A stretch of 64,000 bases of DNA from an uncultured Bacilli bacterium (GTDB taxonomy: Bacteria > Bacillota_I > Bacilli_A > RF39 > UBA660), in the NCBI GenBank assembly GCA_934119955.1, contig CAKOSZ010000002.1:18505-82504 (forward strand), given 5' to 3'. The notes below the pieces were generated by a model. It worked only from the letters and a program-made list of their open reading frames with translations, was not told the origin of the DNA and did no database searches. The translations under genes and the position numbers were made by a program. Shown here piece after piece: positions 53,569 through 61,455 of this stretch (position 1 is the first letter of the stretch; each line of letters opens with the position of its first letter).

Positions 53569-54774
53569 ATGAATGATATATATGATTATGACGAATATTT
53601 AGAACCAAAAAAAGAAAAAGTATTACTTGATACTAATAAATCTAGTAGTGATAAGAAAAAAACAAATAAAAAAAAGATAAATAGTAATAAAAGTCCAAAT
53701 AAAAAGAAGATGAATGAAGAAAATAAGAAAAATTTAATACGTTCTATTATTTTAATAGTAGCCTTAATTGGTTTAGTAGGAGCATTTATCTTTTATAAAA
53801 AAATGAGTACTCCTTCAAGTAAACCTAGTAAACCTAATAATAATTCCGGTATAAAAGATGATAATAAGGAAGAAGTTAAAAAAGTTAGTATTATAGATAC
53901 TGATAGTAATACTCGTCCCTTTGCAGTTATGATTAATTGTCATAATGGAGCACTTCCGCAAGCAGGTCTTAATAATGCCTACATTGTTTACGAATTAATG
54001 GTTGAAGGTGGTATTACTAGAATGATGGCCTTATTTAAAGATAAAGAGGTTAATAAAATAGGATCAGTTAGAAGTGCTAGAACACAGTACTTGGATTATG
54101 TTTATGAAAATGATGCAATTTATGCTCATGCCGGAGGAGCAGCTGATGCGGACAGAAGACTTGCTAGTGAAAAAATAAATCACGTGGATGTAGACTCTGC
54201 TTATGGTATTCGTGATACCTCATTAAAACGTGCTTGGGAACATAAATTGTTTACAACAACAACTCTTATAAAAAAAGGTGCAACTGATAAAGGTTATAGA
54301 TTAACAACAGATGTTAAAAGTTTGCTTAAATATACTCCCAATGAAATAGATCCAACTACCTATCAAGGAAATAAAGTTGCTAATAATGTTAGTATTAAAT
54401 ATTCATATTATAGAACATCAAACTACACCTATGACATATCATCTAAAACTTATTTAAGAAGTATGAATAATACTAAAAATACTGATTTAGTAACAGGTGA
54501 ACAATATAAAGTTAAAAATATCTTAGTTTATGCTGTTAATTATTCTAGTTACTGTGATCATGGATATTGTCAATATCAAAAAATTGATAATGTTGGATCA
54601 GGCGAAGGATTTTATATAACAAACGGATATTCTATTCCAATTACTTGGGAAAAATCAAGTAAAAATACTAAAACTACTTATAAATTAAAGGAAACTGGTA
54701 AAGAACTTGAATTAAATGATGGAAATACTTATATTCAAATATACCCAACTAGTGGAAAATTAACAATTAATTAA
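53569..54774 (+). CDS. Membrane-anchored DUF3048 (YerB-like) family protein. The track uses a TTG start at 53539; the ATG after AGAGGTG is preferred.
   Basis: Lys-rich N-terminus, a TM helix, and a conserved block RPFAVMINCHNGALPQAGLNNAYIVYELMVEGGITRMMALF...SARTQYLDYV reminiscent of DUF3048. Confidence 0.45.
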   Translation: MNDIYDYDEYLEPKKEKVLLDTNKSSSDKKKTNKKKINSNKSPNKKKMNEENKKNLIRSIILIVALIGLVGAFIFYKKMSTPSSKPSKPNNNSGIKDDNKEEVKKVSIIDTDSNTRPFAVMINCHNGALPQAGLNNAYIVYELMVEGGITRMMALFKDKEVNKIGSVRSARTQYLDYVYENDAIYAHAGGAADADRRLASEKINHVDVDSAYGIRDTSLKRAWEHKLFTTTTLIKKGATDKGYRLTTDVKSLLKYTPNEIDPTTYQGNKVANNVSIKYSYYRTSNYTYDISSKTYLRSMNNTKNTDLVTGEQYKVKNILVYAVNYSSYCDHGYCQYQKIDNVGSGEGFYITNGYSIPITWEKSSKNTKTTYKLKETGKELELNDGNTYIQIYPTSGKLTIN

Positions 54775-54790
54775 AAAAATGAATAAAATT
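54669..54790 (+). repeat. Direct repeat copy A: the native 3-prime end of the DUF3048 gene plus ~15 nt downstream.
   Basis: ~105-120 bp at about 90% identity to 61330..61455. The first 53 nt are identical. Confidence 0.8.
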
Positions 54791-54890
54791 GCTAGAATAT
54801 ATTTTAGCTTGTAAATAGTTTGTAAACGTATGTTGATTTTCACTAAATAATTGATACAATATTAATTGTATTTAGTTGAAGGAGTAACAT

Positions 54891-54998
54891 ATGAATAATT
54901 GTTTAACCATGTTTTGTATTTTTTGTATAGAATTAATTAGTTGCGTTACAATTAGTTTTTTATTGACGCCTTTTGTTAGTGCATTTGTTATTTCTTAA
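54891..54998 (+). CDS. 35-aa hydrophobic Cys-rich small ORF (MNNCLTMFCIFCIELISCVTISFLLTPFVSAFVIS); a candidate leader/attenuator peptide or small membrane peptide.
   Basis: RBS aaggag at a 6-nt spacing. A strong intrinsic terminator follows immediately. Absent from the track. Confidence 0.3.
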   Translation: MNNCLTMFCIFCIELISCVTISFLLTPFVSAFVIS

Positions 54999-55040
54999 AA
55001 GATGATAAATTTCATTTTGATTTTTTATCATCTTTTTTAT
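54999..55040 (+). terminator. Rho-independent terminator / attenuator hairpin between the small ORF and the nucleotidyltransferase gene.
   Basis: Perfect 11-bp stem aagatgataaa / tttatcatctt, a ~14-nt loop, then ttttat. Confidence 0.6.
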
Positions 55041-58766: not shown

Positions 58767-58797
58767 AAAATAGGTGTAAAGCGGCTATATATATTAT

Positions 58798-58826
58798 TGT
58801 AAAGGAAAAAAATATATGCTAAAATA
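58798..58826 (+). promoter_or_regulatory. Candidate sigma-A promoter for leuS. No T-box leader is present; the 5-prime UTR is only ~115 nt.
   Basis: TTGTAA, a 17-nt spacer, then TAAAAT. Confidence 0.4.
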
Positions 58827-58882
58827 AAATACAATTTTATTAAATGTTTTTGTTACACATAATTGAAAGGATGTGAAAAATT

Positions 58883-61330
58883 ATGTACAATTTTAAAAAA
58901 ATAGAAGAAAAATGGCAAAAAAAATGGAGCGATGAAGATAGTTTTAAAGCAATAGATTTTCATCCTACAAAACCTAAGTATTATGTATTATATGAATTTT
59001 TTAATATAAGCGGAAATCTTCATTTAGGTCACTTGAAAGGAACTGTTCCAGCAGATGCATTAGCTCGAATGAAAAGATTTCAGGGCTATAATGTTTTATT
59101 TCCAATAGGAGGAGATTCATTTGGATTACCAGCAGAAAATGCTGCCATAAAAAATGGAATAGATCCTAAAGATTTTGTAGCAAACGGAATGAAAAAAGCC
59201 ATGGAACAGTCAAAAAAAATAGGATTATCATTTGATTTTGATAGATCATTTGCAACAAGTGATGAAGAATATTATAAATGGACTCAATGGATATTTTTAC
59301 AATTCTTAAAAAATAATAAGGCATATAAAGAAAAGGGAACAGTTAATTTTTGTCCTAATTGTAAAACAGTTTTATCAAATGAAGATAGTCAAGATGGAAT
59401 ATGTGATAGATGTCATGGAAAAGTAATTCAAGCAGAAAGATGGGTTTGGTATTTAAAGATGAAGGAATATTCTGAGAAGTTGCTTGAAAATGTTGAAAGA
59501 ATTAATATGAGTGAAAATTTAAAAGAACTTCAAAGAAACTGGATTGGAAAGTCAGAAGGAATGAAAGTATCATTTGATATTGTTGATGAGTTTGATAACC
59601 CAATAGGAAAAGAAGATATATTTACTACTTGTGTTGAAACTATTTATGGGATTACATTTTTAGTTATGTCACCAGAGCATAAATTTATAGAAAAGAATAA
59701 AAATCTAATAAAGAATTATGATGAAGTAATGAAATATAAGCATCAAACATCATTTAGAAGTGAATTGGATAGGATGGCTAATCAAAAAGAAAAAACAGGA
59801 TGTATTTTAGATGGAATCTATGCAGTAAATCCAGTAAATAATAAAAAAGTTCCAATATATATTTCTGATTTTGTATTACCTAATTATGGAACAGGAATGG
59901 TAATGGCAGTTCCTGCACATGATCAAAGAGATTATGAATTTGCTAAGAAATATAACATCCCAATGATTCAGGTTATAGAAGGTGATGTAAGTAAAAAAGC
60001 AATAGAAAATAGTAGCTATTTAAAAAACAATAGCAGACTTATTAATTCTTTAAGTTATGATGGAATGACCGTGAAAGAAGCAAAAAAAGCAATATCAGAT
60101 ATGCTTATTGCTAAAAAAGTAGGAAAGATGGAAGTAAATTACAAAATGCAGGATTGGCCTTTTAATAGACAAAGATATTGGGGAGAACCATTTCCAGTAG
60201 TATTTTGTGATGATTGTGGGATTGTGCCAATAGATGAGAAAGACTTACCAGTTACATTACCATACACAAGAGATTATAAACCAAGTAGTGATGGTAGTTC
60301 ACCCTTATCAAAAATTAATGATTGGGTTAATACAACATGTCCTAAATGTGGAGGCCTAGCAAGAAGAGAGACAGATACAATGCCAAATTGGGCAGGCTCA
60401 TCTTGGTATTGGTTAAGATATTGTGATCCACATAATAAAGAAAAATTTGCAGACTATGAATTATTAAAATATTGGGGTAGTGTTGATTGCTATACAGGAG
60501 GAACAGAACACATCACAAGACATGTATTATATGCATTTTTTTGGCAAAATTTCTTGTATGATATAGGAGTAGTGCCAACAAAAGATCCATTTATAAGAAA
60601 AATGGGAAGTGGATTAATTCTTGATAGTGAAGGTAAAAAAATGAGTAAAAGTTCTACTAATGGTGTTTCACCAATGGAAGTAATAGATAAATATGGAAGT
60701 GATGCTGCAAGATTACATATTCATTTTTTAGGTTCATATGAGGATAATACTCCTTGGACTTATGATGGAATAAACGGAATTACTAATTTTTTAAATAGAG
60801 TATGGGAGTTACCAAATTTATTAAATGGTGATAAGATATCAGAACAACATAATGTAGAAATACAAAAATTAATTAAAAAGGTGACTGATGATATAGAAGG
60901 GCTTAGATTAAATACGGCCATTGCAGCTTGCATGTCATTTGTAAAAAAAGTAAGAGAAGATAAATTTATTACTAGAGAAGAATTGAAAATATTCTTAATG
61001 TTATTAAATCCATTAGCTCCACATATAACAAGTGAAATATATGAAAAAGTATTTAACAAAAATATTTTAGATGATGTATGGCCAAAATATAATGAAAAAT
61101 TAATTAATAATGAATTAGTGAATATAGTAATTAATGTTGATAATAAGAAAAGAATGATAATTAAGTGTCCTCTTGGATTATCACAAGATATGTTAATGAA
61201 TTATTTGTCTTTTCAAGAAAATTCAAAAGAATTATTAGAAGAAATAGATATAAGTGATATATATTTTGTACAAGATAGAATGATTAATTTAATTACAGCA
61301 AAATCAAAAGTAAAAAAATTAACAAAATAA
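58883..61330 (+). CDS. leuS: Leucyl-tRNA synthetase, a divergent copy located inside the repeat-bracketed segment.
   Basis: Bacterial-type LeuRS throughout: KPKYYVL, HLGH (the HIGH motif), ARMKRFQGYNVL, GLPAENAAIKNG, CP1 editing motifs GTGMVMAVPAHDQRDYEFA, and KMSKS. The usual FPYPSG, GHPEGYTATD, GWDAFG and TTRPDT positions are substituted (see findings). Confidence 0.88.
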   Translation: MYNFKKIEEKWQKKWSDEDSFKAIDFHPTKPKYYVLYEFFNISGNLHLGHLKGTVPADALARMKRFQGYNVLFPIGGDSFGLPAENAAIKNGIDPKDFVANGMKKAMEQSKKIGLSFDFDRSFATSDEEYYKWTQWIFLQFLKNNKAYKEKGTVNFCPNCKTVLSNEDSQDGICDRCHGKVIQAERWVWYLKMKEYSEKLLENVERINMSENLKELQRNWIGKSEGMKVSFDIVDEFDNPIGKEDIFTTCVETIYGITFLVMSPEHKFIEKNKNLIKNYDEVMKYKHQTSFRSELDRMANQKEKTGCILDGIYAVNPVNNKKVPIYISDFVLPNYGTGMVMAVPAHDQRDYEFAKKYNIPMIQVIEGDVSKKAIENSSYLKNNSRLINSLSYDGMTVKEAKKAISDMLIAKKVGKMEVNYKMQDWPFNRQRYWGEPFPVVFCDDCGIVPIDEKDLPVTLPYTRDYKPSSDGSSPLSKINDWVNTTCPKCGGLARRETDTMPNWAGSSWYWLRYCDPHNKEKFADYELLKYWGSVDCYTGGTEHITRHVLYAFFWQNFLYDIGVVPTKDPFIRKMGSGLILDSEGKKMSKSSTNGVSPMEVIDKYGSDAARLHIHFLGSYEDNTPWTYDGINGITNFLNRVWELPNLLNGDKISEQHNVEIQKLIKKVTDDIEGLRLNTAIAACMSFVKKVREDKFITREELKIFLMLLNPLAPHITSEIYEKVFNKNILDDVWPKYNEKLINNELVNIVINVDNKKRMIIKCPLGLSQDMLMNYLSFQENSKELLEEIDISDIYFVQDRMINLITAKSKVKKLTK

Positions 61331-61455
61331 AAACTACTTATAAATTAAAGGAAACTGGTAAAGAACTTGAATTAAATGATGGTAACACTTATATTCAAAT
61401 ATATCCAACAAGTGGTAGTTTAACAATTAATTAAATAAAAATTAAATGAATAAAA
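61330..61455 (+). repeat. Direct repeat copy B: an orphan 3-prime fragment of a DUF3048-gene homolog immediately after (and overlapping) the leuS stop codon.
   Basis: Reads ..KTTYKLKETGKELELNDGNTYIQIYPTSGSLTIN*. It differs from copy A by 6 codon changes, 5 of them synonymous. Confidence 0.8.

Follow-up and report, generated by a model that had tools for sequence, protein, structure and literature searches.

Genomic islands, ICEs and prophages integrate in the 3' ends of genes with att repeats, and suicide plasmids or circularised fragments enter by Campbell-type integration through a single crossover. In the pneumococcal cps region, between dexB and aliA, polysaccharide loci are switched by recombination in the conserved flanking genes. 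[quoted passage not shown] 2017, PMC5361080).

Here we analyze a 64,000-nucleotide stretch of DNA from an uncultured Bacilli bacterium (the window), in which a block of genes ending in leuS lies between a DUF3048 gene and a gene for a SigG-like sporulation sigma factor. We consider it likely that positions 54793-61329 form a strain-variable chromosomal cassette, flanked by a target duplication of ~124 nt, that has spread by homologous recombination. As at the Rhs, CDI and T6SS loci, the incoming DNA bears its own copy of the conserved upstream gene end as an anchor, the former resident 3' end persists downstream as a displaced orphan, and there is no recombinase; unlike at those loci, the cargo consists of three metabolic genes and an essential tRNA synthetase gene rather than a toxin/immunity pair, and there is one orphan only, not an array. 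As in cps switching, the flanks are mosaics of divergent alleles swapped by homologous recombination, whereas here a housekeeping tRNA synthetase gene is part of the exchanged unit and a gene end is left in duplicate. The features of the locus are as follows:

53539..54774, + strand: DUF3048 (YerB-like) gene (Pfam PF11258, PF17479)
54670..54792, + strand: repeat copy A, the DUF3048 3' end plus ~18 nt of the original DUF3048-sigG spacer; L020/L006-type allele from 54723 to the junction
54793..55100, + strand: left end of the cargo, a small ORF and then an AT-rich hairpin
55101..55946, + strand: nucleotidyltransferase, Pol-beta superfamily (p281), with a GS...DID motif
55948..57624, + strand: group II PLP-dependent decarboxylase (PF00282)
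57642..58766, + strand: phosphodiesterase, alkaline-phosphatase superfamily, NPP type (PF01663)
58883..61330, + strand: leuS, full length, 815 aa with editing domain (Pfam)
61330..61460, + strand: repeat copy B, the orphaned DUF3048 3' end (61330-61434) plus the native spacer to sigG; L001-type resident allele from 61368
61495..62265, + strand: sporulation sigma factor, SigF/SigG family, SigG best match (NCBIfam)

The DUF3048 gene end and its orphaned copy

The last 105 nt of the DUF3048 gene, stop codon included (copy A, 54670-54774), recur as copy B at 61330-61434, exactly where an earlier note on this DNA had placed them. That note put their identity at about 90%; the repeat is real and the match slightly better, with 98 of 105 positions identical (93%). 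The first 53 nt are the same in both copies and all 7 mismatches fall within the last 52 nt. A probe made of the 53-nt segment found exactly two sites in the window, against 0 expected from shuffles. Translations agree with the note's count of five synonymous codon differences out of six (GGA/GGT, AAT/AAC, TAC/TAT, ACT/ACA and GGA/GGT); the sixth replaces K with S (AAA/AGT).

Copy B retains both the reading frame and the TAA stop, and no ATG, GTG or TTG start occurs in the stretch from the previous in-frame stop to the repeat. Its frame differs from that of leuS, whose stop codon (61328-61330) shares its last base with the start of the repeat. Judged against the empty sites described below, the duplicated target extends ~18 nt beyond the DUF3048 stop, so that the ~105-bp repeat first noticed is part of a longer duplication of ~124 nt in total, with the direct repeat at 54670-54792 and its counterpart at ~61330-61460. 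No inverted repeats were found at the cassette ends. The DUF3048 gene itself is intact because copy A provides its 3' end, and its product is 97% identical in amino acids to P0001 of contig L001, which has an empty site. In relatives its start is called at 53569 (401 aa).

Between copy B and the sigma factor gene we considered a forespore-type promoter (GAATA-N17-CAATATA, 61448-61476) and rejected it: there were 2 matches against 3.5 expected, hence no enrichment, and transcription would start inside the ribosome-binding site. Scans for sigma-70 promoters and terminators returned sites no more numerous than in shuffles.

Empty and occupied sites coexist among closely related strains

All comparison sequences, given here as L numbers, were gut-metagenome contigs. 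The earlier note had proposed an insertion and suggested looking in relatives for an empty site with DUF3048 followed directly by sigG. Such sites, with the order UGDH-DUF3048-sigma-160 aa-acyltransferase, were found in four DUF3048 allele lineages (L001/L002, L003-L005, L006 and L036-L038), and the two genes that the insert separates in the window are adjacent there, as that reading predicted. In relatives the sigG-like gene is called at 256 aa, and at empty sites it comes immediately after DUF3048. The insertion together with its orphan fragment was found in L019-L025 (at least 7 further fetched contigs), which come from independent assemblies and two divergent backgrounds. The window's exact LeuS is present on 15 contigs with unchanged context, and a 98% relative on 18 contigs. 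An alignment of the junctions in all occupied loci showed the same left break, after ...AAATTGC, and the same right break, at the leuS stop. Occupied L022 and empty L006 have 98.3% identity to each other across 5 kb of their right flanks. Empty and occupied sites thus coexist among closely related strains, and the 6.5-kb block is an insertion between DUF3048 and the sigG-like gene in some of them.

Since the source of the window is a metagenome-assembled genome, and a related contig (L034) is visibly chimeric, one could ask if a mis-join at the repeat produced this structure. The chance of this is practically negligible, as the junctions are identical base for base on contigs of 8-226 kb from different studies, assemblers and allelic backgrounds.

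It is also quite improbable, in our estimate, that the occupied state is ancestral and that the empty sites are secondary deletions by recombination of A with B, restoring DUF3048-sigG precisely. Such recombination would leave no scar, empty and occupied strains are interleaved on both backgrounds, and the adjacency of the nucleotidyltransferase/decarboxylase/phosphodiesterase genes to leuS is old. However, the orphan fragment is proof of an intact DUF3048-sigG junction before the insertion, and four DUF3048 allele lineages are empty. A deletion would moreover remove leuS and so require a second copy, and the identity of the cassette (98.7%, against 76-93% for the flanks) points to recent spread rather than ancient residence.

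Allelic mosaic and proposed routes of spread

The two repeat copies belong to different alleles over their distal halves. That of copy A has 1 mismatch to copy A of L020 and 6 to L001, while that of copy B has 2 to L001 and 6 to L020. Informative sites on the left are of resident type through 54667 and of donor type from 54723 to the junction; on the right they are of donor type at 61335-61356 and of resident type from 61368. The window's lineage therefore has an L001-type backbone with the cassette in its L020-type form, and the allele switches from resident to donor within copy A and back within copy B. Within the cassette the window is 98-99.6% identical to L020, against 82-89% in the DUF3048 body and 76-86% in the right flank.

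Because the allele switches inside the copies, their synonymous differences reflect two alleles of a functional gene end and not decay; synonymous-only divergence between repeat copies can be mere allelic history. The earlier note had thought it probable that one copy came with the inserted DNA, and this is borne out, the distal half of A being of L020/L006 type. It had also taken copy B to have evolved as coding sequence elsewhere. This part fails: the distal half of B is of the resident L001 type (2 vs 6 mismatches), and since this half and the downstream leader are the resident allele, B evolved as coding sequence in place, where it was the gene's functional end. The breakpoints do lie inside the repeat, at 54667-54723 in A and 61356-61368 in B.

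It is in the L020-L023 lineage that the primary duplication has been kept best, with copies A and B ~98% identical. Both are the same allele there, so the first event was a target duplication and not displacement by a foreign allele. Private changes in the orphan copies of this lineage, three of them nonsynonymous (D>V, T>S, T>I), suggest that these copies are under relaxed selection.

In its strict form, Campbell integration would mean that a circular, non-replicating 6.6-kb molecule, released by A x B recombination in a donor cell, re-integrated into an empty site by one reciprocal crossover in the 124-nt homology. This is possible, though we lean against it. Direct repeats flank the insert, which is thus bracketed by a duplicated homology segment as in Campbell integration; host recombination would suffice, and the cargo has no recombinase gene. 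The distal half of A is of donor type and that of B of resident type, with breakpoints within the repeat. Yet the copies should then be reciprocal hybrids with one shared switch point. Their distal halves agree with this, but in the window both copies have the same, donor-like proximal 53 nt, a single mosaic pattern that a simple reciprocal crossover does not predict and for which later gene conversion between the copies would have to be invoked. In L024, A and B switch at different repeat positions (57-80 vs 27-53). The homology is very short (~124 nt), DNA taken up from other cells is normally linear, so that a circle would have to form afterwards, and the right flank is itself a mosaic, of L001 type from 61368 to ~61930 and then of L020 type to at least 62300, which indicates that ordinary double crossovers are frequent here. 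Such double crossovers explain the mosaic flanks equally well as a Campbell single crossover does, and given the mosaic right flank the present structure may be the product of at least two recombination events in succession and not of a single one.

The reading with good support is spread of the cassette by homologous recombination in the conserved DUF3048 end. For a cassette without a recombinase, movement between strains would be by recombination of the RecA type, a step we infer from that lack. The conserved 3' end of DUF3048 would be the sole high-identity anchor on the left because the gene body is only about 80-83% identical between types, and the switch from resident to donor at 54667-54723, within this conserved end, is what an end joined by homology should look like. 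On the right, the junction falls exactly at the leuS stop (TAA followed by AAACTACTT), and the sides share only an A-run, which is uninformative at 24% GC. The first insertion could have been a single crossover of a circularised fragment already bearing a DUF3048 end, or an illegitimate joining, anchored or by template switch, precisely at the leuS stop. Read in this way, the locus is a clean natural example of a recombinase-free gene block that was inserted and then passed between diverged strains, with ~100 nt of highly conserved gene end serving as the anchor and a diagnostic orphan fragment left behind.

The cargo and the second leuS locus

A Pfam search of all cargo ORFs matched only the decarboxylase, the phosphodiesterase, LeuRS and, weakly, the nucleotidyltransferase. 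It revealed no integrase, excisionase, transposase, replication, transfer or plasmid gene, in agreement with the earlier note, and the occupied loci L019-L025 have the same gene calls with no mobility gene. The note read the segment as an inserted circular element and proposed comparing its GC and codon usage with the flanks; the composition turned out to be native (25.3% GC vs 23.8% for the window, with GC3 within the flanks' range). Related lineages carry the block beside relA or ftsZ, with LeuS at 70-78%: the order is relA-NTase-decarboxylase-PDE-leuS in L028 and relA-decarboxylase-NTase-leuS in L007, with a variant in L029. The cargo is thus a chromosomal block conserved in related lineages and not a foreign element.

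These data also bear on the idea that the cassette is what is left of an element with site-specific mobility (prophage, ICE or genomic island), one that targeted the DUF3048 3' end and lost its integrase. The layout does resemble islands in gene 3' ends, with a supplied and so restored gene end, a displaced orphan as direct repeat at the far side, and presence that varies by strain at a fixed site. The idea is nonetheless very improbable. Unlike such elements, the cassette has no recombinase or other mobility gene in the cargo or in any fetched occupied locus, its 124-nt repeat exceeds the usual att core in length, and its cargo is a conserved chromosomal block of native composition. Viral contigs held no relatives of the cargo and plasmids none above 30% identity, and the ends lack inverted repeats. 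Nor does the segment look like an insertion sequence or composite transposon: there is no transposase and no terminal inverted repeat, and the duplication is ~124 nt, not short.

As a single sequence the nucleotidyltransferase matched neither Pfam nor NCBIfam, while 7 of 9 homologues matched PF01909 and a PDB profile search found 6wt9 (E = 2e-5); the label given by the earlier note therefore holds at the superfamily level. The decarboxylase is distant from DABA, GAD and CSAD decarboxylases, and the match of the phosphodiesterase to ENPP5 is weak. In Clostridia and Alphaproteobacteria MAGs this three-gene module has no conserved neighbours, so its context yields no functional clue. A decarboxylase search of genome contigs missed the window's own species (best match 66%), which either has no GTDB representative or has one without the cassette. 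At the left end, the small ORF (54891-54998) comprises 35 codons and is Cys-rich and hydrophobic, and the AT-rich hairpin with a T-run at 54997-55036 has a folding energy of -12.2 kcal/mol (z = -4.0). For these leftmost ~300 nt no counterpart or source locus was found outside the cassette. Defence-system models gave no meaningful match; leuS has no T-box leader, and Rfam detected no RNA family anywhere in 53-63 kb.

An essential tRNA synthetase gene is an unusual cargo for a segment that is polymorphic for presence and absence, and its position there implies alternative leuS locations within the species complex. In rarer contigs (L026/L027), a 95%-identical leuS lies at another locus, after an S66 peptidase gene, and strains with an empty site probably keep their leuS at this second locus. 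An auxiliary synthetase of the resistance type, placed in a biosynthetic cluster, would be accompanied by a housekeeping leuS elsewhere in its genome; at the level of the population, L026/L027 do provide a second leuS context. An apparently decayed leuS at the S66 locus (L034, 284 aa) was discarded as an assembly chimera; at position 8841 of this contig, which has 3.6x coverage, GC jumps from ~25% to ~50%.

A joint reading of both loci, which we offer as speculation more apt to be wrong than right, is that an apparently single-copy essential leuS resides at one of the two by strain, in the DUF3048-sigG cassette or after the S66 MccF-like peptidase, and that its versions exchange by gene conversion. 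The slot upstream would hold alternative modules, either nucleotidyltransferase/decarboxylase/phosphodiesterase or class-II-synthetase-like/methyltransferase/GNAT/S66 peptidase, and these might be linked in function to LeuRS, perhaps through synthesis or detoxification of a leucyl-adenylate mimic. Alternative leuS locations, if borne out by complete genomes, would make the locus a useful case for essential-gene relocation and inter-locus gene conversion in gut bacteria. The cassette sits at the downstream edge of a strain-variable glycosyltransferase/Wzy cluster.

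The repeated gene end and the genes it encloses

We confirmed the recurrence of the DUF3048 gene end after leuS that the earlier note had described. The two copies are 93% identical; their first 53 nt are the same and all 7 differences fall in the remaining 52 nt. In the window, where GC is ~24% throughout, a 53-nt repeat probe matched only these 2 sites, with 0 expected by chance. Translation in the DUF3048 frame bore out that five of the six differing codons are synonymous, the sixth being a K-to-S change. The final base of the leuS stop codon is also the first base of copy B, whose frame differs from that of leuS. 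Upstream of the repeat, as far back as the previous in-frame stop, there is no ATG, GTG or TTG start codon, so copy B is an orphan gene end.

Features between and beside the copies (window coordinates)
54670-54774: copy A, last 105 nt of the DUF3048 gene, TAA stop included
54891-55036: 35-codon Cys-rich hydrophobic ORF (MNNCLTMFCIFCIELISCVTISFLLTPFVSAFVIS) with its own Shine-Dalgarno sequence, then a hairpin
Cargo: 281-aa protein with a GS...DID motif
Cargo: group II PLP decarboxylase
Cargo: NPP-type phosphodiesterase
Cargo, last gene before copy B: full-length leuS
61330-61434: copy B, recurrence of the 105-nt DUF3048 end
Downstream of copy B: sigma factor of the SigF/SigG family, with SigG as best NCBIfam match

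All occupied loci that span the 35-codon ORF keep it (89–100% aa identity), and it was found nowhere else; its 3' hairpin, AT-rich and followed by a T-run, is a strong terminator. On its own, the 281-aa protein gave no significant Pfam (E <= 0.001) or NCBIfam match. PF01909 matches seven of its nine homologues and a profile search returned a solved NTP_transf_2 protein, so the label ‘nucleotidyltransferase’ holds at the superfamily level. The mechanical ORF start of the sigma factor is TTG 61480; in relatives the protein is called with a length of 256 aa, corresponding to ATG 61495, which is preceded by GAAGGAG. A start at ATG 61495 leaves a spacer of ~60 nt behind the orphan fragment.

Empty and occupied sites

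Close relatives of the window DUF3048 protein are numerous in gut metagenomes, and among their contigs we found the predicted empty site, in which DUF3048 is followed directly by the sigma factor gene. The order there (UDP-glucose dehydrogenase, DUF3048, sigma factor, a 160-aa protein, acyltransferase) is that of the window flanks, and the gap between DUF3048 and the sigma gene is just 48–75 nt.

Empty sites, by DUF3048 relative
L001, L002: P0001, 97% identical to the window DUF3048
L003-L005: P0008
L006: P0011
L036-L038: P0013

No cargo sequence was found in these empty-site contigs, and the insertion model is supported. Alignment with the empty sites extends the duplicated target ~18 nt past the DUF3048 stop, to ~124 nt in total; the cassette was inserted with a target duplication of this length. 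In L006, one of the empty-site strains, 19 nt (TTAACAATTAATTAAAAAA) are duplicated in tandem at the stop codon of DUF3048 (~11196-11235).

The insertion has a wide distribution: 15 contigs carry the window's exact LeuS in the same gene context (Hadza gut MAG labelled ‘uncultured Bacilli bacterium’), 18 contigs (L020-L023) carry a 98% variant, and L024/L025 carry a 96% variant. All loci that span the cargo ends have the orphan gene end and share both breaks, the left after ...TAAAAAAATGAATAAAATTGC and the right at the leuS stop, followed by AAACTACTT.... Because independent assemblies from several studies agree on these junctions, an assembly artefact is excluded. L024 alone has a 473-aa HTH_28/29 gene, transposase-like, between the UDP-glucose dehydrogenase gene and DUF3048 (3112-4533, - strand).

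Allele switches and the route of insertion

Between the window and the occupied locus L020 the cassette is 98–99.6% identical, whereas the DUF3048 body is 82–89% and the right-hand genes (acyltransferase, RluB, CmpB) are 76–86% identical. This contrast indicates a recent move of the cassette between diverged backgrounds. Because the gene body is so diverged, the conserved last 100-odd nt of DUF3048 form the nearest usable left anchor. Across 5 kb of right flank, L022 (occupied) and L006 (empty) share 98.3% identity, so that presence or absence of the cassette varies inside one species-level lineage. The window right flank is itself a mosaic: it is of L001 type from 61368 to ~61930, of L020/L006 type at ~61935-62300, and of L001 type again in the acyltransferase. 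Judged from protein identity, the 162-aa protein after sigG (62292-62780) is also of L020/L006 type (94% identical to that of L006 and 68% to that of L001), and as its neighbours on both sides are of L001 type it marks a small imported patch. Homologous recombination at the locus is evidently frequent and suffices to explain the spread of the cassette. A surface-polysaccharide cluster of strain-dependent content (Bac_transf, glycosyltransferases, Wzy-like polymerases, epimerase, UDP-glucose dehydrogenase) lies upstream of DUF3048 in the window (39000-53514) and in L001, L003, L006 and L020, with the cassette at its downstream edge.

In L020-L023, whose DUF3048 is of L003/L006 type (~80% aa-identical to that of the window), copies A and B match almost completely, with 0–2 differences per 105 nt, and among the changes private to the orphan copy three are nonsynonymous (D>V, T>S, T>I). 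This pattern is expected of a fragment that was duplicated recently and is not under selection. In the window and L024/L025 the DUF3048 body is of L001 type. The distal half of the window-type copy A, with the 18 nt past the stop, is of L020 type (1 mismatch, against 6 to L001), and the distal half of copy B, with the spacer to sigG, is of L001 type (2 mismatches, against 6 to L020). The window copies are therefore terminal segments of two alleles of a functional gene; purifying selection acted on these alleles while they diverged in separate strain lineages, until cassette movement united them, and the synonymous nature of their differences follows from such divergence. One copy did come with the insert, as the earlier note thought probable, but it was A and not B, the distal half of B being resident.

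A three-way site analysis placed the left switch between resident-type sequence, up to 54667, and donor-type sequence, from 54723 to the junction; on the right, 61335-61356 is donor-type and resident-type sequence begins at 61368. A later transfer between lineages had both allele switch points within the repeat, and we infer that host homologous recombination carried it out. A strict Campbell single crossover as the first insertion agrees with the topology and with how the copies' distal halves are typed, but predicts neither the identical, donor-like proximal halves nor the differing A/B switch points in L024. Both features can also be explained by one copy converting the other or by a series of double crossovers. 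The right junction coincides with the leuS stop and has just an A-run in common with the target, which would suit an anchored illegitimate or template-switch join but is uninformative at this base composition. The event, insertion and exchange of a cassette with no recombinase and an orphan gene end left behind, is of a known type; what is notable is the essential leuS among the cargo.

The cargo and a second leuS locus

No gene for a recombinase, a transposase, replication or transfer is present in the cargo, in line with the earlier note, which had seen no integrase, transposase or plasmid gene there. No inverted repeats were found at its ends and no relatives on viral contigs, and plasmid matches were all below 30% identity. 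Comparison with the flanks showed native rather than foreign composition (GC 25.3%, against 23.8% for the window; GC3 within the flank range). The block also occurs in chromosomal settings elsewhere in related lineages.

Related blocks
L028: relA-NTase-decarboxylase-PDE-leuS (56/75/62/78% aa)
L007: spo0A-relA-decarboxylase-NTase-leuS
L029: HD-decarboxylase-NTase-2x PNP_UDP-leuS

By these comparisons the cargo is not a foreign element, and an origin as a foreign circular element is unsupported. Clostridia and Alphaproteobacteria MAGs also carry the three-enzyme module, there without leuS and with no conserved neighbours found. In L029 (12626-13845) and L030 (7912-9131), leuS is immediately followed by IS3-like genes (HTH_Tnp_1 + rve).

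A second leuS, of 813 aa and with another C-terminal tail, is present in L026 (10001-12442) and L027 (367-2808). It is preceded by genes for a class-II-synthetase-like protein, a methyltransferase, a GNAT protein and an S66 peptidase, and followed by a different phosphodiesterase. At the DNA level it is 95% identical to the cassette leuS, and the homology is limited to the gene, beginning 22 nt upstream of the ATG and ending ~30 nt short of the stop. The patchy identity along the gene (89–100%) indicates that both versions have recombined and suggests that the two loci exchange sequence by gene conversion. The closest outgroup LeuS (82%, L031-L033) likewise lies behind the S66 module, downstream of relA. 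Cassette-type LeuS (815 aa) is found on ~42 contigs and S66-type (813 aa) on ~6, and the data are compatible with empty-site strains keeping leuS at the S66 locus. An apparent truncated leuS at that locus (L034) was rejected as an assembly chimera, as GC jumps from ~25% to ~50% inside the gene at ~8841.

The slot just upstream of leuS, between relA and leuS in three lineages, holds alternative modules (window 55101-58766; L031-L033, ~3440-9000; L026, 4363-9971). One comprises the Pol-beta NTase, PLP decarboxylase and phosphodiesterase. The other has six genes: class-II-synthetase-like (343 aa), unknown protein, methyltransferase, Acetyltransf_3 GNAT, unknown protein and S66 (MccF-like) peptidase.
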